Sequence record: MN158206.1
Strand: one strand, 5' to 3'
DNA: 46,880 nucleotides
From: Escherichia phage BEK2
Made by a program: the position numbers and the translations under genes. Positions 1,089-30,932 of this stretch are shown in pieces; position 1 is the first letter of the stretch, and the number at the start of each line of letters is the position of its first letter. The notes below the pieces were generated by a model. That model ran no database searches and was not told where the DNA came from. It saw only the letters and a list, made by a program, of their open reading frames with translations.

Positions 1089-2652
1089 TTTAATCGTATG
1101 GGATGAGCTGACATACGCAGAAAAGATGGCTATCAAGGCCATCTCTGAGCATAGTTTCGAGGGGTTCTTGCGGTGTTTCTTCCAGATAACTCAGGGCGAG
1201 AGATTCAAAATGAATTGGCATGCGAAGTACCTATGCCGTGTTATAGATGAGATTCTCGAGGGAAAGAGAAAGGATACCATCATAAACGTAGCTCCCGGAT
1301 CAGCCAAAACCGAACTTTTTAGCATTCACTTCCCTGTGTATAGCATGATTAAGATTAAGAAGGTCAGGAATCTTAGTTTGTCGTTCTCTGATTCATTGGT
1401 TAAGCGCAACTCCAAACGCGTCCGTGACCTTATTAAGTCAAAGGAATTTCAGGAGCTCTGGCCTTGCACCTTTGGAACGTGCAGGGATGACGAGATTCAG
1501 GTTCTGGATGAGAATGGCAAAGTTAGGTTTGAGTCTATATCCAAGGCGATGGCAGGACAGGTGACGGGAAGCAGGGGAGGCTACATGACTGACGATTATA
1601 GTGGTTGCATAATGCTTGATGACCCACTAAAGCCTGATGACGCGTTAAGTAATGTAAGAAGAGAGGCTGTCAACATGCTTCTCAAGAACACAATTCGTTC
1701 ACGTCGAGCTAGCTCAGTAAAGGGAAAGGAAACGCCAATACTTTCCGTGCAGCAAAGACTTCATGTTCTGGACACTAGCCACTTCATGGAGTCAGGGCAA
1801 ATGGGCATAAAGTTCGACGTAGTGAAAGTTCCAGCCATAGTCACAGAGGATTACGCCGACACGCTTCCTGATTGGATCAAGCAACAATTTATTGATGATG
1901 TTCTTTCATCACCATTTGTAGAGCGGGATGGGGTTAAGTATTACAGCTACTTTCCGGCAAAGGAGTCAATAGAAGACCTGATGGCCATGTGGGATGCTGA
2001 CCAGTACACGTTCCTTAGTCAGTATCAACAAGAACCAGTAGCACTTGGCGGCAATCTGATTAACGTGGATTGGTTCCAGCGCCTTAGCGATACATTCAGA
2101 CCTCCCGCTAAGTATGATTATCGATTCATCACATGCGATACTGCGATGACTACAAAGAGTTATAGTGACTTCTCTGTACTTCAGTTGTGGGGCTATAAGG
2201 ACGCCAAGATTTACCTGATAGACCAGCGCAGAGGTAAGTGGGAGGCGCCAGAGTTGGAAGCTGAACTGCTGGACTTCGAGAAGAAATCAAGGGCAACCAG
2301 TCAGGCAGATGGCATCCTCCGAAAGATTATCATCGAGAAGAAAGCCTCTGGTATCGGTCTTATTCAATCGGCAGGTAGAGTTATGCGAACACCGATAGAG
2401 CCATACGTGCCGGATAACGACAAGCTAACTAGGGTAATGAGCGCATTGCCACAGATTAAAGCTGGTAACGTAGTTCTTCCCGAGTCAGCGTCGTGGTTAA
2501 ACGGATTGCTTACTGAGGTTGCGGCTTTTACGGCAGATGATTCGCATAAGCACGATGACCAAATTGATACCATGACAATGGCAATCAACCTGGTTCTGAA
2601 CATTGCGGACGATCCTAAGGCGCGACTAATGCGCATAGCGGGAATTAAATAG
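1081..2652 (+). CDS. terminase large subunit
   Basis: ATG 1081 with GGGAGG RBS (track ORF 973 starts inside HNH gene); size and position between terS/HNH and portal; stop TAG embedded in TAGCAC box. Confidence 0.85.
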   Translation: MSDLIVWDELTYAEKMAIKAISEHSFEGFLRCFFQITQGERFKMNWHAKYLCRVIDEILEGKRKDTIINVAPGSAKTELFSIHFPVYSMIKIKKVRNLSLSFSDSLVKRNSKRVRDLIKSKEFQELWPCTFGTCRDDEIQVLDENGKVRFESISKAMAGQVTGSRGGYMTDDYSGCIMLDDPLKPDDALSNVRREAVNMLLKNTIRSRRASSVKGKETPILSVQQRLHVLDTSHFMESGQMGIKFDVVKVPAIVTEDYADTLPDWIKQQFIDDVLSSPFVERDGVKYYSYFPAKESIEDLMAMWDADQYTFLSQYQQEPVALGGNLINVDWFQRLSDTFRPPAKYDYRFITCDTAMTTKSYSDFSVLQLWGYKDAKIYLIDQRRGKWEAPELEAELLDFEKKSRATSQADGILRKIIIEKKASGIGLIQSAGRVMRTPIEPYVPDNDKLTRVMSALPQIKAGNVVLPESASWLNGLLTEVAAFTADDSHKHDDQIDTMTMAINLVLNIADDPKARLMRIAGIK

Positions 2653-2692
2653 CACGAATTGCTAAACATAAAAGCCAGGGATGGCTTATAGT
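2650..2692 (+). promoter_or_regulatory. composite early-type promoter (TAGCACGAATTGCTA + -10 TATAGT)
   Basis: box 2650-2664, -10 2687-2692 (37-bp phasing), spacer contains inverted repeat agcca/tggct. Confidence 0.6.
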
Positions 2693-2727
2693 TACTTCAC
2701 ACAAACGAGATGAGAGGAGATAAACAA

Positions 2728-3111
2728 ATGGGACGCACTTCAAAGGTTGTATATCTTGGAAGCAACACTGGAGAGTGTGGTGGTTTTACAGTAGGAAAGG
2801 AATATAAGGCTTACAATTATAATACTGAATATAATTACATTTCAACTTATGATGATAAAGGTAGCTATCGTCAAATCAAGAACGGAGCATTCCACCACTT
2901 CAAACTCCATGATGAGGATGACCATTTTGTAACTGAGACTGAGTGCGCAGTCATGCAGCCCAGCGAAGATAAAAAACCATCTCTAATATATTGCATAAAC
3001 GGTCATGAAGTTGACATGATTGAGTTTGAAAATGTGCGCCATAAGGTTCTAGAGCTTGATGCTTATGGCGTAAAATGCGACACAATCAAGTTCGAAGTAA
3101 AATTCGAGTAA
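2728..3111 (+). CDS. hypothetical protein (autonomous cargo gene between terL and portal)
   Basis: ATG 2728 with GAGGAG RBS; own promoter upstream and own terminator downstream; no recognisable domain. Confidence 0.6.
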   Translation: MGRTSKVVYLGSNTGECGGFTVGKEYKAYNYNTEYNYISTYDDKGSYRQIKNGAFHHFKLHDEDDHFVTETECAVMQPSEDKKPSLIYCINGHEVDMIEFENVRHKVLELDAYGVKCDTIKFEVKFE

Positions 3112-25893: not shown

Positions 25894-26319
25894 ATGCACG
25901 TAATTACTGGTCAGATTCGCCGCGCTCCATTCACTAAAGAAGGTCAAAACGCCAATGGTAACTGGAAAATGTTCGCGGTTGATTTGAGTGAGCGATACAA
26001 AGATAAAGATGGTCAATCGCAATATACGAATTACAGAGCCGTCTTCTTCGCTAAAGAATCCATGTTAGACTGGTATAATGAAGCATTTCAAGAGGGTAAG
26101 ATTGTTAGTGTTAGCTCTGAAAGCCTGGCTGTTGATGTTCGTGATAAAGATAGCAAGACTTACGTAACTGTTAACATGAACAATCCTCGTCTTGAGTTTA
26201 GCCAGCGTGGCGATACAGCACCACAACAGCATGGGCAAAAGCAACAACAGAAAACTCAGCAACAGCAGCGTCAGCAACCTCAGCAACAACAACAGGTTGA
26301 AGACGATATTCCCTTCTGA
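25894..26319 (+). CDS. ssb: single-stranded DNA-binding protein
   Basis: OB-fold N-terminus, Gln-rich linker, acidic tip '...VEDDIPF' like E. coli SSB 'DDDIPF'. Confidence 0.85.
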   Translation: MHVITGQIRRAPFTKEGQNANGNWKMFAVDLSERYKDKDGQSQYTNYRAVFFAKESMLDWYNEAFQEGKIVSVSSESLAVDVRDKDSKTYVTVNMNNPRLEFSQRGDTAPQQHGQKQQQKTQQQQRQQPQQQQQVEDDIPF

Positions 26320-26350
26320 TAAAAGATAAAGCCACTTTCTGATTTTGATA

Positions 26351-26374
26351 AAAAGGAGCCTTACGGCTCCTTTT
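26351..26374. terminator. bidirectional terminator
   Basis: aaaaaggagcc-ttac-ggctcctttt. Confidence 0.65.
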
Positions 26375-26379
26375 ATTAC

Positions 26380-27588
26380 TTAAACACCAGTCAGTCTAGA
26401 TAACTCCCTACGTAGAAGCGCGCACTCTAGAGCGAGGCACTCCTCCATTCGAACCATCCATATTTCTCCAGCATCCTTACTTTCATCGGCATCCCATTTT
26501 TCGTGAATAAGTATTCCGTAATCACATGCGTCCAGACCTGCTTTAAGGAACTTGTCTCTGATGTCTTGAGCAATTACACCAATGTGTAGACGAGCTTCAT
26601 TGTCTCCCTTCTCAGAAACTGCCCTCTTCATTTTCCACTGCTTGTAATTTACTGTACTCCAGGCATCAAGAACTTCGTCAGGAATATCACCTATAAAAAC
26701 CTTGTGGTTTTCATCGGAAACAACTGTAGGTGCGTTCTGAAAATACGCATTGTTATATGTCAGTGATGCATATCCAATGTTATGCGTCGCGGTAACGTCA
26801 GGTGCAAGTGTTCTTGTTCTAAGTATTCCCGACACATTACCTCCTCCGAAGTTTACAGCAGCAGTAGTATTTAGCTCTGCACCACTTACGAACTCCTGAA
26901 TCCAGGGGCCTACCGAAGATGAGGATATTTGTCGACGCCACCCCGTCTGCGATGCGCCATTAGTTCGCAATGTTTGTATGGTGTCGTTATTACCTATAAG
27001 GTACTCAACATCCATAATTGATGCACCAGTGCCTCTAGTTGGTACATCTGTGAACACAGAGAATACGGAGCCTGGAATGTAATATCGACCTGGTGTTTTT
27101 ATGTTAGACAGAAGGTTTCCGTTTGATGATGCACTAGAAGCCGTCATGAACTCGATCAATCCAAACTGAAAAACTTTATGCCAACCAGAATCCACGTAAT
27201 TAGCAGCGGCAGATCTATTTATGTGACGTGACCAAAGACCGTTTTCGTTCTGGTAAAAAAAAGAAATCTTATTGTTAGCCTCAAGTGAAGCGTAAACAGT
27301 TAGACGACCAGAAAGTCGTGCGCCGTTGGTTAGAGAAGGCATATCAAATTCTGTGTTTACACTCTGTGCAATCTCCGTCATAAATATGGCGTTATTTGGC
27401 ATTCTGGTAGCAATCAGAGACACAGTCGCTTCATCTGCGGTAATACCTAGTTCAGCAAGTTTAGTCAGAGTCATTACACCGGACTGGTCGTTGAGTCTAC
27501 CTATCTGAGACTCTATCATCATTAAGGCTTCGTCGAGGGAGTCTTTATTGGCAGTAAGAATGTTGGCATCGAGGGTTAATTTTTCCAT
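26380..27588 (-). CDS. tail fiber protein, possible C-terminal intramolecular chaperone domain
   Basis: Gly/Ser/Thr/Asn-rich body; C-terminus 'ARLHIGVIAQDIRDKFLKAGLD...YGILIHEKW' resembles auto-chaperone domains; low certainty. Confidence 0.45.
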   Translation of the reverse strand: MEKLTLDANILTANKDSLDEALMMIESQIGRLNDQSGVMTLTKLAELGITADEATVSLIATRMPNNAIFMTEIAQSVNTEFDMPSLTNGARLSGRLTVYASLEANNKISFFYQNENGLWSRHINRSAAANYVDSGWHKVFQFGLIEFMTASSASSNGNLLSNIKTPGRYYIPGSVFSVFTDVPTRGTGASIMDVEYLIGNNDTIQTLRTNGASQTGWRRQISSSSVGPWIQEFVSGAELNTTAAVNFGGGNVSGILRTRTLAPDVTATHNIGYASLTYNNAYFQNAPTVVSDENHKVFIGDIPDEVLDAWSTVNYKQWKMKRAVSEKGDNEARLHIGVIAQDIRDKFLKAGLDACDYGILIHEKWDADESKDAGEIWMVRMEECLALECALLRRELSRLTGV

Positions 27589-27598
27589 TTTAATATCC

Positions 27599-29116
27599 TT
27601 AAATTGTGAGGTCTACGTATAGTGGTTTGTGGTCACCTATAGCGAGAGGTGTATCTACAGAGCCATATTCACCTTGTTCTGAAAAACCTTTGTGGAATAT
27701 GCGATCAAGATACCATGTACCGCCGTTATTGCTGGTATTAATCTCCCCATTCCGGTTAACCATTGTGAAACCTGCGTCTATGAATGGTTGAAAATCAGAA
27801 TCGTTGTTGGTGTTCCAGTCACCCATCAATACGACATGGCTGTGTGTTTCTGCTGCAGCCATGCTTGCTAACTCGGTTATCATGGCACTAATGCGTTCCT
27901 GTGATAGCGCTAGATGAGTATTATAAACTACAACCGTTGTGCCGTTAACTTTCATCTCAGCTCTTACATAACTCCTGTATTCTGTGTCGCCTACTGTTGG
28001 TTGAGATAAGAAACGGGATCCGGTGACATTGGTTAGCGGTCGAGTTGAAGCTACCATGTTCCCGTAGTTTCTACCGAAGCTGAACCACTCTGAAGTTGAC
28101 TGGAAACCCGATCCGTAAGGGTAAAGCGCTAATTCGGATGCTCGCAAGTTGGGTACAGTATAGCTTTCCTGGCCGCCAACAAAATCCGCACCTATCCGTA
28201 GCCACCAAGTATTAATGTCAACGATTCGCTGCCTGTTAGCGTAGTCACCACCGAAATATCCACTTATACTGCCGGCTCCCCAGTTGTTCCAAGTGACGAA
28301 ACGAACCTTGTTAGAAGTAATTGCGTCTTCGCGCTCTCGAATCATCTGGCGTACGTTATCAGTTGAAGTTGCGACGATCTGTTCCCTAAGGGTAGCATCT
28401 GTTAGGCCAATCCATGCTGTCGGGCCTATTCCGCCAGTCGAATCCACGGTTGAGTTTGCTGGAACAACCTTAGGAAGTTCACCTCCCCACACGTAAGATG
28501 CTGCATTGCCATCTTTAATATCTATTATTTGCTGTGTTTTTGATTCAATTGTAACGCCATCCTGAAAGCTACCAATTAAGGCACCAGAAACAGAAGCGGC
28601 ACTTGCTGCGGCCTGTTGCGCAGATGTGGAAGCTGATGATGCGCTCAATTCGGATGATTGCTTATCCTGTGATACCTGATAAGCATCACTTGATACTTGA
28701 GCGCCAATGGTGACAATTTCTCCATATTGTGTGTTAATTTGGTTAACATCATTTGAAAATTTATCCTGATCAAAATCCTTAAAAACATCAACAGCTGTTG
28801 CAACTTCCGTTTCACGTGACTGGTAGTAACGAAGAGTTTCTGCAACATCCTGAGCCAAACCTTGAACGGTAATCCCATCGTGCGCAAGGATTGCGTAACC
28901 AGTTCCAGCAGGAACGGTTTCAGAGTTGGGGTTGTAAACATTAATCTGCGTATCGCTGATAATTTCTGAGATGGTGTAAATCTGTACCGGCTCTGTTTTA
29001 AATACAATGGTTGCACCAACTCTGATCAGTGTAAGTGGTGCCTTCCATGTTGTACCTACGCCAATAACCTCGCCATTTGCGGCCAGCGAAGCTGTTCCTA
29101 AGTCATAAATTGCCAT
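27599..29116 (-). CDS. tail fiber protein with C-terminal endonuclease/exonuclease/phosphatase (EEP) domain
   Basis: ATG 29116 with GGAGA RBS; Ser/Ala-rich linker; EEP motifs 'FVTWNNWG', 'NTHLA', 'VVLMGDWNTN', 'GDHKPLYVDL'. Confidence 0.7.
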   Translation of the reverse strand: MAIYDLGTASLAANGEVIGVGTTWKAPLTLIRVGATIVFKTEPVQIYTISEIISDTQINVYNPNSETVPAGTGYAILAHDGITVQGLAQDVAETLRYYQSRETEVATAVDVFKDFDQDKFSNDVNQINTQYGEIVTIGAQVSSDAYQVSQDKQSSELSASSASTSAQQAAASAASVSGALIGSFQDGVTIESKTQQIIDIKDGNAASYVWGGELPKVVPANSTVDSTGGIGPTAWIGLTDATLREQIVATSTDNVRQMIREREDAITSNKVRFVTWNNWGAGSISGYFGGDYANRQRIVDINTWWLRIGADFVGGQESYTVPNLRASELALYPYGSGFQSTSEWFSFGRNYGNMVASTRPLTNVTGSRFLSQPTVGDTEYRSYVRAEMKVNGTTVVVYNTHLALSQERISAMITELASMAAAETHSHVVLMGDWNTNNDSDFQPFIDAGFTMVNRNGEINTSNNGGTWYLDRIFHKGFSEQGEYGSVDTPLAIGDHKPLYVDLTI

Positions 29117-29140
29117 CGTGTAAAGTCTCCTTTTGTAAAA

Positions 29141-29155
29141 TAGCACGAATTGCTA
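29141..29155 (+). promoter_or_regulatory. orphan TAGCACGAATTGCTA box (no phased -10 for adjacent gene)
   Basis: perfect box between primase terminator and tail-fiber start codon, antisense to both. Confidence 0.4.
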
Positions 29156-29180: not shown

Positions 29181-29202
29181 ATAAAAAACCTCCCGAAGGA
29201 GG
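29181..29202 (-). terminator. intrinsic terminator after primase gene
   Basis: minus sense cctcc-ttcg-ggagg + T6. Confidence 0.65.
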
Positions 29203-30126
29203 TTAGCTATTCAATAAGTCACTTGCCTTATATATCTTCTTCCTGATGCCGCTCTTGAATGAGTATTCATCATTTGGTATTACCACGTCAATACACCTGT
29301 CATCCGCAACGCAAAGCAACTCTCTGTCAAGTTTGCACGCCACTCTCAGCTTTTGGTTTCTAAGCGCGTAAGCAACCATTTCCATGTTGTAACTGGAGTA
29401 GCAAACAAGCACACAGCGGTTGCCAGTAGCAATGTGAACACGATAGCCGTCAATGAGATTATCGACCAGATAAGCGAACTCACCATCCTTAAGGGAACCA
29501 ATAACAGCCACAGACTGGCGAGTGTAATCTTTTGCGGCATAACTAACATCTCCTTCTTCATTGATAAACATTACATTGCACATTTCTTCTGATATACCAT
29601 CACCATAAGCCATGAAGCAAGGTATTGCATGGATTAATTCACCTGATTTTGCTCTACCAACATCAAAGCCAAACTCGCTATAGATTCCCTCGTATATACT
29701 GAGTGGGGTTGATTCTACTCTTTCCGTCCTTCCCATTATCTCTAAGCATCTTTCGTGGTCAATTTGAGCGCCCATTTTGTAGAGCTGGGTTCTTGATGCT
29801 TGCTTGTTTGCCTTGTTGACAACCTCAACCGGGATAAGGTTTAGCCACTCACCGAGAACGTCGATACACTCACTGAATGACTCGCCTCGCAGCTTCTGGA
29901 CCCAGAGAATTCCATCCCCTGAGCCGCACTGGTTGCAGATAATGCCACCATCACCATCTTCGCTAACCTTGTTTGTCCATCTCGCGCGATCGTTTCCACC
30001 GCAATAGATGCATGGCTTGTGCTTCTTGGTCTGGAAAAACTTAGGATCTGCGCCGCAGATGTTTATAAGCGCCTTATCCCACAGTCCGCGCATTCTTGGT
30101 AGAACCTCTTTCTTATCGTAGTGCAT
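29203..30126 (-). CDS. DNA primase (zinc-ribbon + catalytic domain)
   Basis: 'PCIYCGGNDRARW...GGIICNQCGSGDGI' matches primase Zn-ribbon pattern. Confidence 0.65.
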   Translation of the reverse strand: MHYDKKEVLPRMRGLWDKALINICGADPKFFQTKKHKPCIYCGGNDRARWTNKVSEDGDGGIICNQCGSGDGILWVQKLRGESFSECIDVLGEWLNLIPVEVVNKANKQASRTQLYKMGAQIDHERCLEIMGRTERVESTPLSIYEGIYSEFGFDVGRAKSGELIHAIPCFMAYGDGISEEMCNVMFINEEGDVSYAAKDYTRQSVAVIGSLKDGEFAYLVDNLIDGYRVHIATGNRCVLVCYSSYNMEMVAYALRNQKLRVACKLDRELLCVADDRCIDVVIPNDEYSFKSGIRKKIYKASDLLNS

Positions 30127-30208
30127 ATTAATCTATCTCTTAACAAATAAAAAAGGATGTACCTATTATGGCACATCCAATTCTTTACTCTTTAGCTTTT
30201 CGTGCCAA

Positions 30209-30397
30209 TTAAATAACAAAGTGATGAGTCATTCTTCGCGACAAAAAAGACTCAAGATATTTTTCAATTACGTCCTTTTTACCAGTTTTTTTGTTGTAGG
30301 CGTATGGAGTTCCGCTGGTGTTATCAACTTTACCAACAAATTTGTCGCCATCAACGTTAAAGATTGCTACGAATTTACATTTAGGTAATTTGTTCAT
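30209..30397 (-). CDS. hypothetical protein
   Basis: 62 aa ORF with AAGGAT RBS. Confidence 0.4.
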   Translation of the reverse strand: MNKLPKCKFVAIFNVDGDKFVGKVDNTSGTPYAYNKKTGKKDVIEKYLESFLSRRMTHHFVI

Positions 30398-30446
30398 TTT
30401 GTATATCCTTGTTTAGTTTATCGGCTTTCGATGTGTTAACCATACC

Positions 30447-30932
30447 TCATCCATGAGAAATGTCTTTAGCTTTTCGTGCTGCCTCGTTAGCGGCCTTAAT
30501 CTTGCGCCATGAGCGACACTCTGGCTTGGTGGCTAATTCTGCATCAGTGACCACGCGCAGCATGTGACGTTTTTTGCAGCGCAGGGTTAGAGGCTTGCCA
30601 TTGCCGTCGAATTGCAGATCTGGTCGGCAGAATGTGGCTCTAAAACCTTCCCCGGTTCGTTTGTAGTAGTTGTGCGATAACTGAGCACCACGTGCGGAAA
30701 TCATGCCGCGCTTAAACCATTCTTCTACAGCCTGTGGTGTTACCTTTAGCTGCTTTGCGATATTCGCTTTTGTGCCGAAGAAATCAAGAACTATATCTAG
30801 TCGCGCGCGTAGTCCGGCTCTTACTTCATCTTTTAAAACGTAGTAGCCTGAAGGTCGTTTGCGTTGTTTTTTGTCTTCAGTGCGGATAGTTCCGTTGTTC
30901 CCGTTGATTGTTCGCTTGTCGACTGTATTCAT
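30447..30932 (-). CDS. HTH DNA-binding protein (candidate transcriptional regulator)
   Basis: 'TKANIAKQLKVTPQAVEEWFKRGMIS' helix-turn-helix; first gene of leftward operon; GAGGT RBS. Confidence 0.55.
   Translation of the reverse strand: MNTVDKRTINGNNGTIRTEDKKQRKRPSGYYVLKDEVRAGLRARLDIVLDFFGTKANIAKQLKVTPQAVEEWFKRGMISARGAQLSHNYYKRTGEGFRATFCRPDLQFDGNGKPLTLRCKKRHMLRVVTDAELATKPECRSWRKIKAANEAARKAKDISHG

Follow-up and report, generated by a model that had tools for sequence, protein, structure and literature searches.

Phage receptor-binding proteins (RBPs) are the main determinants of host range, and their enzymes are used against capsules and biofilms and for typing. To our knowledge, the catalogue of enzymes carried by these proteins comprises glycosidases, lyases, esterases and peptidases. 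In enzymatic tailspikes such as the P22 endorhamnosidase, the K1F endosialidase, TSP1-4 of CBA120 and the gp63.1 deacetylase of G7C, an anchor, a Tail_spike_N-type domain and an enzyme follow each other in this order, and the enzyme module is swapped between phages at conserved junctions. The same order and the same kind of exchange were found for a gene of Escherichia phage BEK3 (Drexlerviridae, Braunvirinae; isolation host E. coli K514), the predicted lateral tail fibre of which ends in an endonuclease/exonuclease/phosphatase (EEP) domain and which is followed directly by a second gene, hereafter the partner. Coordinates are those of the window, that is, the whole stretch of 46,880 nucleotides presented above under MN158206.1, and the GenBank record of BEK3 (MN158207.1) is offset from them by 3 nt. 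A first-pass annotation of the window had described a tail fibre with a Ser/Ala-rich linker and a complete C-terminal EEP domain; it missed the obligatory partner, the mobility of the cassette and the occurrence of such fibres outside BEK3. We found that the EEP domain and the partner constitute a mobile two-gene receptor-recognition cassette.

The EEP fibre and the enzymatic tailspikes share their genomic slots, which are the position after the tail-spike genes of Kuttervirus Se-J, T7 gene 17 and the lateral-fibre locus of Drexlerviridae. The fibre differs from them in that its enzyme is a metal-dependent EEP sandwich and not a beta-helix glycosidase or lyase or an SGNH esterase, its predicted target bond is a phosphodiester and not a glycosidic or ester bond, and it has an obligatory second protein. 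The right-handed parallel beta-helix of classical tailspike depolymerases was absent from the predicted model of the C-terminal domain, and with an EEP sandwich in its place the fibre was classed in this work as depolymerase-like, outside the beta-helix family. The gp12 appendage of phi29, which degrades teichoic acid, and the glycerophosphodiester phosphodiesterase domains of staphylococcal baseplates are virion enzymes that cut phosphodiester-linked surface polymers; they have beta-helix and TIM barrel folds, act on Gram-positive hosts and have no sequence relationship to the EEP domain, and the logic proposed here is alike. Bacterial neutral sphingomyelinase C and beta-toxin (PF03372) belong to the same superfamily and have the same catalytic set (Mg2+ Glu, two His, Asp-x-Asn and Asp), whereas the EEP domain is only 14-16% identical to them, is fused to a fibre, falls in a separate rare clade (48 clusters at E<1e-10) and has a substrate that is probably a glycan and not a lipid. 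In the T5-like phages DT57C and DT571/2, LtfA and LtfB are encoded by two adjacent fibre genes, the second of which codes for an S74-type chaperone at its end, and are thought to bind O-antigen and to be dispensable on rough strains. Both DT57C subunits carry non-enzymatic receptor-binding domains, whereas an enzyme forms the end of the first subunit in BEK3 and both genes travel together as a cassette across virus families.

An EEP domain at the tip of a lateral tail fibre

The gene product is assigned by sequence comparison to the lateral tail fibres of Rtp-like siphophages. Its residues 1-250 showed 58-76% identity to the fibres of AugustePiccard, SU57, Rtp, Rogue1 and other Rtp-like phages, and the gene lies between the primase and the single-stranded DNA-binding protein (SSB)/recombinase genes, in synteny with the lateral tail fibre locus of Drexlerviridae, which bears out the earlier description of the gene as a tail fibre. 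This position has been described for Drexlerviridae lateral tail fibres in the BASEL study, in which it is a diverse fibre locus, conservation is confined to the extreme N-terminal end of these proteins and the fibres are probably O-antigen-binding and dispensable on K-12 (PMC8594841). Residues 1-167 matched the anchors of the solved Klebsiella phage depolymerases 7vyv and 7lzj (E ~1e-35), and residues ~180-250 matched the N-domains of solved tailspikes, including CBA120 TSP1 and TSP3 and G7C gp63.1. Pfam placed Tail_spike_N (PF18668) at residues 182-238 with 55.3 bits against a cut-off of 25 (E=7e-15), and PHROG tail-fibre families were matched by both the N-terminal (E=1e-61) and the C-terminal (E=5e-55) parts. 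The Ser/Ala-rich linker was also found in the translation as the stretch SSELSASSASTSAQQAAASAASVSGA. When the protein was searched by tblastn, its N-terminal half was common to 1,304 phage records, and at least 80% of its length was covered by BEK3 alone; across ~100 relatives, conservation of the fibre is limited to the N-terminus.

The C-terminal region matched Exo_endo_phos (PF03372) above threshold in Pfam (residues 296-496; 42.6 bits against a gathering cut-off of 24.5, E=7.5e-11), as did all the 35 homologues scanned. The four EEP motifs listed in the first-pass annotation were all present in the translation as RFVTWNNWG, VVYNTHLALS, VVLMGDWNTNND and AIGDHKPLYVDLTI. The AlphaFold model of residues 256-505, built on 18 homologues, gave a confident EEP fold with a mean predicted local distance difference test score (pLDDT) of 90.6 and a predicted template modelling score (pTM) of 0.91, so that profile search and structure prediction, the two computational checks proposed at first pass, both agreed with the domain call. 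The model predicts a four-layer alpha/beta sandwich and supports a bona fide member of the EEP superfamily. In Foldseek, the model matched solved EEP enzymes with E ~1e-13 to 1e-14, template modelling (TM) scores of 0.6-0.73 and 14-18% identity, the top matches being 4ruw (4e-14), TDP2, human neutral sphingomyelinase, B. cereus sphingomyelinase and Bacteroides EEP proteins. A comparison with predicted viral structures gave two close fold matches, one to the tail fibre of CR8 (TM 0.91) and one to the EEP protein of CrRp3 (TM 0.90), and the remaining ones were EEP proteins of giant viruses at a far lower level. The domain fits no characterised EEP subfamily, and NCBIfam gave a generic EEP match below threshold with no specific subfamily assignment.

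When the family profile was compared with PDB sequences, the first match was an uncharacterised Leptotrichia EEP protein (3teb), followed by the beta-toxin of S. aureus and the sphingomyelinase C of Streptomyces (E=2e-4 to 1e-3, the 2e-4 match spanning only ~135 positions), and no nuclease was returned at E<0.01. This result bears on the reading of the domain as a virion-borne DNase, which would help the phage to reach cells by breaking down the extracellular DNA of mucus or of the biofilm matrix. The EEP superfamily does hold DNase I, ExoIII/APE1, CdtB and TDP2, and TDP2 dominates the Foldseek list. A role as DNase is quite improbable, as no nuclease was found by profile; all family members have an acidic domain (net charge -6 to -15, isoelectric point 4.6-5.5), which is a weak point because DNase I is also acidic, and a generic DNase needs neither a co-evolving adhesin-like partner nor the serotype-specific T7-type gp17 slot as the sole tip.

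The residues N277, E317, H401, D433, N435, D471, D495 and H496 were invariant in the 35 homologues, which range from 22 to 86% identity to BEK3, and in ten phage copies. We take these eight to be the canonical EEP catalytic and metal-binding set as established for DNase I, APE1 and sphingomyelinase. Together with the start methionine they make up the nine invariant columns of the 35-member alignment, the mean column identity of which is 19%, and in the profile alignment to beta-toxin and 3teb the E, H and GDxN motifs came out in the right places. The absence of catalytic residues on alignment, which had been named at first pass as grounds for rejecting the domain, was looked for and all eight residues were found, in keeping with a complete C-terminal EEP domain. 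Furthermore, the comparison of the EEP domain with its twin in a second Rtp-like phage fragment from a gut metagenome (L014) gave a ratio of nonsynonymous to synonymous substitution (dN/dS) of 0.12 at a dS of 0.23. The active site thus appears intact and kept by selection, and metal-dependent hydrolysis of a phosphoester is predicted.

The same residues count against a binding-only pseudoenzyme or docking platform, in which the EEP fold would hold a phosphorylated ligand or the partner, the latter being the true RBP, with no catalysis. The partner is always present and RBP-like and was called a putative tailspike by the authors of the CR8 and CR44b genomes (PMC4038870), and phage fibres often contain enzyme folds that have lost catalysis. 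Such residues are normally lost in pseudoenzymes; because all eight are invariant down to 22% identity and dN/dS is 0.12, we regard this alternative as most improbable. We consider it very probable that the BEK3 protein is a fibre of the virion and that its EEP domain is capable of catalysis.

The partner gene and its exchange as a cassette

The fibre and partner genes are predicted to be co-transcribed and form one unit, because they are bracketed by two terminators. In the partner, a conserved N-terminal domain is followed by a short stalk and, at the C-terminus, by a Peptidase_S74 domain (43.8 bits against a cut-off of 22 in Pfam). Its N-terminal 260 residues correspond to phrog_22156, annotated as 'unknown function'. 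By tblastn, the N-terminal domain was found in seven of 50,697 phage records, those of BEK3, W22, Se-H, Se-I, Se-J and Se-N, all seven of which carry the EEP domain, and the match was always the gene immediately after the EEP gene. The search with hidden Markov models (HMMs) added Se-J gp099 and a Cronobacter B1 protein as partner homologues, and hhalign identified CR44b gp17.01 (probability 98.8%, E=1e-16) and CrRp3 gp09 (probability 98.4%, E=7e-15). In every one of the ten phage backbones examined, the EEP gene was followed immediately downstream by the partner; among these backbones are those with partners of 61% identity in a 131-kb metagenome contig (L005), 59% in W22 and 43% in a lambdoid prophage from IMG/VR (L006), where it follows a GpJ-like gene. 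Partner homologues in the protein database occupied contigs of the same size as the EEP homologues. When the pairwise identities of the EEP domains and of the partner N-domains were compared among ten phages, the two were strongly correlated (Pearson r=0.89, Mantel p=1e-4), indicating that the EEP gene and the partner are inherited and diverge as one unit. The EEP domain and the partner are thus very probably one functional module, and the strict pairing across unrelated phages offers a clean system for studying the exchange of multi-subunit receptor-binding cassettes.

The S74 domain, an endosialidase-type intramolecular chaperone, was also present in the L005, L006 and P0180-P0189 partners (Pfam; precomputed for L005 and P0180-P0189), the W22 partner aligned with that of BEK3 across this region at 59% identity, and the domain was absent from the partners of Se-J, CR44b, CrRp3, CtuB1, PM116 and PA28. 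The GenBank entry of the partner (QGH76807.1) carries the note 'binds to the polymannose O-antigen accelerating adsorption of T5 phage', which is probably an over-transfer, because the S74 domain was the only similarity to T5 fibres found.

The partner is inferred to be a virion-bound adhesin-type subunit. The GenBank annotation of CR44b marks gp17 as well as gp17.01 with 'matches in mass spectrometry analysis'. The partner profile matched RBPs of S. aureus phages, namely NF5 Gp17 (1e-7), the P68 tail fibre (4e-6), the phi812 RBP (6e-6) and the 80alpha and phi11 RBPs (3e-3), the similarity falling on C-terminal modules of these proteins with the motif GxYYxxGxxxxxFTDxP. These staphylococcal proteins recognise wall teichoic acid. 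They are single large proteins made up of stem, propeller and tower domains, unlike the small EEP-dependent partner, and the similarity extends over ~80-100 residues. A fold search with the low-confidence partner model returned the same S. aureus phage proteins, and it was used only as support for the independent profile result. An initial view of the partner as a beta-propeller was withdrawn, as the profile alignment falls on the staphylococcal C-terminal modules and not on the propeller.

The strict pairing and the correlated divergence are also typical of toxin-immunity pairs and of tail-fibre assembly proteins encoded downstream of their fibres. The partner might therefore be an inhibitor, an immunity protein or an assembly chaperone, which would mask the EEP site in the producing cell and be displaced at adsorption; some fibre chaperones remain on the virion, which fits the mass-spectrometry note of CR44b. 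The S74 domain and a short triple-helix-like stalk in the partners of BEK3, W22, L005 and L006 mark an autonomous trimeric fibre protein, and the profile matches are to RBPs, so that such a role is very improbable, and it would be compatible with an EEP-tipped fibre acting with an adhesin and not exclusive of it.

In the 2014 genome announcement of CR8 and CR44b, CR8_49 and CR44b_50 were singled out as unique under the name 'putative tailspike', and Phyre was cited for a resemblance to the adsorption protein P2 of PRD1, with no comment on the EEP domain in the neighbouring gene 17 (PMC4038870; the CR44b partner homologue is at L008 4723-5544). Beyond this one-line remark, the obligatory partner and the cassette behaviour appear to be undescribed. 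The domain combination of EEP and fibre is already visible in database annotation, where relatives are named 'EEP family protein' and 'tail fiber/spike domain-containing protein' in NCBI and UniRef. Full-text literature searches, in which the slash-containing family name was not directly searchable, returned no paper on an EEP-bearing fibre, no functional or structural study of such fibres, no characterised virion-borne EEP-type phosphoesterase and no paper mentioning BEK3, in line with the doubt expressed at first pass that this fibre type had been characterised; the CrRp3 paper is silent on the EEP domain.

The mobility of the pair was seen at its borders in BEK3. The flanks of the locus (recombinase, SSB, primase and regulator) showed 83-87% DNA identity to about 100 Rtp-like phages, whereas DNA homology ended at 26339 and returned at 28458 for AugustePiccard (~residue 220 of the fibre) and at 28770 for JulesPiccard. 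At the protein level, the fibre matched AugustePiccard up to residue 251 (76%) and JulesPiccard up to residue 153 (81%). The L014 fragment (ERZ987937, 4,379 bp) carries the EEP fibre and the partner at 381-1877 and 1888-3096, between primase and SSB/ERF, and showed the opposite pattern, in which residues 181-505 of the fibre and the partner were 92-95% identical to BEK3 and residues 1-180 only 57-75%, with a dS of ~1.8. The L014 pattern suggests that the cassette was transferred recently, at a junction ahead of Tail_spike_N, and the two opposite patterns together indicate exchange junctions on both sides of this domain. Thus, a Drexlerviridae anchor and tailspike N-domain have been joined by recombination to a Mg2+-type EEP domain, and the mosaic fits the published view that conservation in the lateral fibres of Drexlerviridae is confined to the extreme N-terminal end (PMC8594841).

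The EEP domain alone was found by tblastn in 17 of the 50,697 phage records, which represent about 10 phages. Besides BEK3, the carriers are W22 (Justusliebigvirus; 57% identity, in a phi92-type multi-fibre cluster), the Citrobacter phages CR44b and CR8 (in the T7-like gene 17) and CrRp3 (Vectrevirus), Cronobacter vB_CtuP_B1, Proteus PM116, 'Pseudomonas' PA28 and the Salmonella phages Se-H, Se-I, Se-J and Se-N (Kuttervirus). The PA28 record (OM234793.1, L012) is flagged UNVERIFIED and classified in Novosibovirus, and its host label looks doubtful. In Se-J, the EEP gene comes directly after three annotated tail-spike/tail-fibre genes (gp095-097) and itself carries Tail_spike_N. Among the 35 members, Tail_spike_N was present in 13, the T7 tail-fibre N-domain in 6 and the P22 head-binding domain in 3, and the cassette has been grafted onto scaffolds of T7-type gp17, SP6/K1-5-type, P22 head-binding, Ackermannviridae TSP, phi92-like and lambdoid kinds. 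HMMER over 1.84 billion cluster representatives gave 280 matches at E<1e-3, 48 at <1e-10 and 24 at <1e-30, and a word-indexed search of 5.8 billion proteins gave 20 matches, several of them on Citrobacter koseri chromosomes. Strains with prophage copies belong to C. koseri, Providencia and Proteus. IMG/VR contained two loci only; blastn with a distant setting found no match to the EEP DNA in 5,426 complete E. coli genomes, and a scan of the species representatives of GTDB with two peptide patterns only returned no relative, which does not prove absence. The domain thus represents a rare and distinct EEP clade found almost only at the business end of phage RBPs.

Candidate substrates of the EEP domain

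Three of the carriers, CR8, CR44b and CrRp3, belong to two unrelated podovirus lineages and were isolated on the same host, C. rodentium, and in CR8 and CR44b the EEP domain is the tip of the sole tail fibre. The O-antigen of C. rodentium is E. coli O152-like by in-silico typing and anti-O152 immunoblot (PMC12501221). Among 182 E. coli serogroups, a sugar-phosphate-sugar bridge occurs in six, O84, O152, O160, O172, O173 and O181, and 11 further serogroups have sugar-alditol phosphodiesters (PMC9912281). The simplest reading of this coincidence would be that these phages carry a phosphodiesterase where other phages carry an O-antigen glycosidase. The first-pass annotation had suggested that a fibre-borne EEP enzyme could cleave surface polymers or lipid head groups, and we infer circumstantial support for such a role from the O152-like host O-antigen of the three carriers. 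Furthermore, the EEP domains of phages with different hosts were only 25-57% identical to each other, a divergence that looks like serotype-specific tuning. C. rodentium phage Eifel2 was considered separately as a receptor lead and dropped, as it is a Felixounavirus with no EEP module.

In the mechanism proposed here, the partner would dock on or beside the EEP domain and grip the surface glycan, and the EEP domain would then hydrolyse a phosphodiester within the held glycan, the likeliest target being a glycosyl-phosphate or alditol-phosphate bridge in the repeat unit of an O-antigen or capsule. The enzyme would thus act as a receptor-destroying depolymerase with which the phage works down the polysaccharide to a terminal outer-membrane receptor, and the phage would not need the fibre on its K-12 isolation host, which lacks O-antigen. 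For this explanation as a whole, an EEP-tipped fibre that cuts a surface-glycan phosphodiester with the help of an adhesin partner, the evidence tips modestly in favour.

Several observations weigh against it. The case for BEK3 itself is made entirely from sequence comparison and models, and the strain on which BEK3 was isolated, K514, is derived from K-12 and lacks O-antigen. Fibres form trimers, whereas an EEP domain usually occurs as a monomer. TDP2 and other nucleic-acid enzymes scored equal to the sphingomyelinases in Foldseek, so that the fold alone does not discriminate between substrates. The partner model was poor (pLDDT 58, pTM 0.32), and the partner homologues of PM116 and PA28 were weak and partial (E=3e-8 and 5e-9). 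The O152 link comes from a single host species and not from phage receptor data, and for this reason the specific assignment of the EEP substrate as a glycan phosphodiester is kept as a near-even call, slightly on the doubtful side.

The sphingomyelinase matches raise the alternative of a lipid-anchor or membrane phosphodiesterase similar to sphingomyelinase C or phospholipase C, which would free the glycan from its lipid or loosen the outer membrane locally. Its targets would be the phosphatidylglycerol-linked enterobacterial common antigen (ECA-PG), the lyso-phosphatidylglycerol that anchors group 2 capsules, phospholipid of the outer membrane or the phosphates of lipid A. S. aureus beta-toxin and Streptomyces sphingomyelinase C are the nearest characterised proteins by profile (E=2e-4 to 1e-3), the human neutral and B. 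cereus sphingomyelinases are among the top fold matches, and BEK3 grows on O-antigen-less K-12. ECA-PG is phosphodiester-linked to its lipid and occurs throughout Enterobacterales, the order of nearly all the carrier hosts, and W22 belongs to the phi92-like genus Justusliebigvirus, a kind that the BASEL study groups with Vequintavirinae relatives, their shared primary receptor being apparently ECA (PMC8594841). However, the domain ends a long lateral fibre behind a glycan-type adhesin and is not at the tail tip that meets the membrane, and it resembles sphingomyelinases only distantly (14-16% identity, TM 0.65-0.72) and no more closely than it resembles TDP2. A universal anchor such as ECA-PG also predicts a conserved domain, whereas the 25-57% identity observed between hosts resembles serotype specificity. 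On balance, a lipid substrate is unlikely.

Returning to the cleavage of a glycan phosphodiester, the EEP domain and the partner would represent a new class of two-component phosphodiesterase receptor-binding module for phosphodiester-bridged surface glycans, with horizontal spread of the cassette through seven or more phage families or genera, which we put forward as a tentative and somewhat doubtful proposal. Candidate targets of such a class would be O152-type O-antigens of E. coli and teichoic-acid-like O-antigens and capsules. If glycosyl-phosphate cleavage is true, it would explain how phages handle the minority of O-antigens and capsules that are phosphodiester-linked, it would provide specific enzymes for phosphodiester polymers, and the EEP and partner signature would predict host serotype from phage genomes. 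Should the substrate be DNA or lipid instead, it would remain unusual to find such an enzyme on a virion.

Coordinates and neighbouring features

The features of the locus are collected below. The GenBank counterpart of the fibre coding sequence is QGH76808.1, 'tail fibers protein', on the minus strand. The open reading frame (ORF) listing also holds a longer in-frame form, 27599..29146, with a GTG start at 29146. The start is assigned from the sequence to the ATG at 29116 (MAIYDLG...) in preference to this GTG, because an AAGGAG ribosome-binding site lies ~10 nt upstream of it; the fibre homologues and solved relatives, like the GenBank coding sequence, begin with MA(I/L)Y, and the ATG comes just after the hairpin of the primase gene. 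The hairpin downstream of the partner was read directly from the sequence and was not listed by the terminator scan.

Table. Features of the fibre and partner locus in window coordinates.
Feature	Position	Strand	Basis or remark
EEP-bearing lateral tail fibre coding sequence, 505 aa + stop	27599..29116	-	ORF listing, Pfam, PHROG, tblastn, GenBank
N-terminal virion anchor, aa 1-110	28787..29116	-	common to Rtp-like lateral fibres and Klebsiella phage depolymerases (PDB 7vyv, 7lzj)
Helical and Ser/Ala-rich low-complexity linker, aa 111-181	28574..28786	-	most divergent part against L014 (57% identity)
Tail_spike_N domain (TSP1/Gp66 type), aa 182-238	28403..28573	-	Pfam; precedes the catalytic domain in CBA120 and G7C tailspikes
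EEP phosphoesterase domain, aa 256-505	27602..28351	-	Pfam, AlphaFold model, Foldseek, alignment
Partner gene, 402 aa	26380..27588	-	10 nt 3' of the fibre gene; own AAGGA site
Partner conserved N-terminal domain, ~235 aa	26884-27588	-	followed by short stalk and C-terminal Peptidase_S74
Peptidase_S74 core (endosialidase-type intramolecular chaperone), partner aa 291-347	26548..26718	-	Pfam
Segment without DNA homology to other Rtp-like Drexlerviridae	26340..28457		imported cassette of EEP domain and partner
Ribosome-binding site AAGGAGA	29126..29132	-	~10 nt 5' of ATG 29116; read from sequence
Terminator-like hairpin AACCTCCTTCGGGAGGTT + T-run	29187..29204	-	after the primase gene; upstream edge of the two-gene fibre operon
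Terminator-like hairpin aaaaGGAGCCgtaaGGCTCCttttt + T-run	26350..26374	-	just 3' of the partner stop; downstream operon edge; read from sequence

Some minor observations were made around the locus. The records of 'Pseudomonas phage PsgS01F' and 'Campylobacter phage A110b' (PP134917.1 and MG065688.1) showed ~84-85% DNA identity to the Rtp-like region of BEK3, and their host labels look doubtful. AugustePiccard has a putative homing endonuclease between its primase and transcriptional regulator genes (L003 3514-3993), and at the corresponding position of BEK3 (window ~30130-30450) there is just a 62-aa ORF, 30209-30397. The SSB-like ORF beside the cassette (25894-26319, plus strand) was found to have a glutamine-rich tail (…QQHGQKQQQKTQQQQRQQPQQQQQVEDDIPF) ahead of its acidic C-terminal tip.

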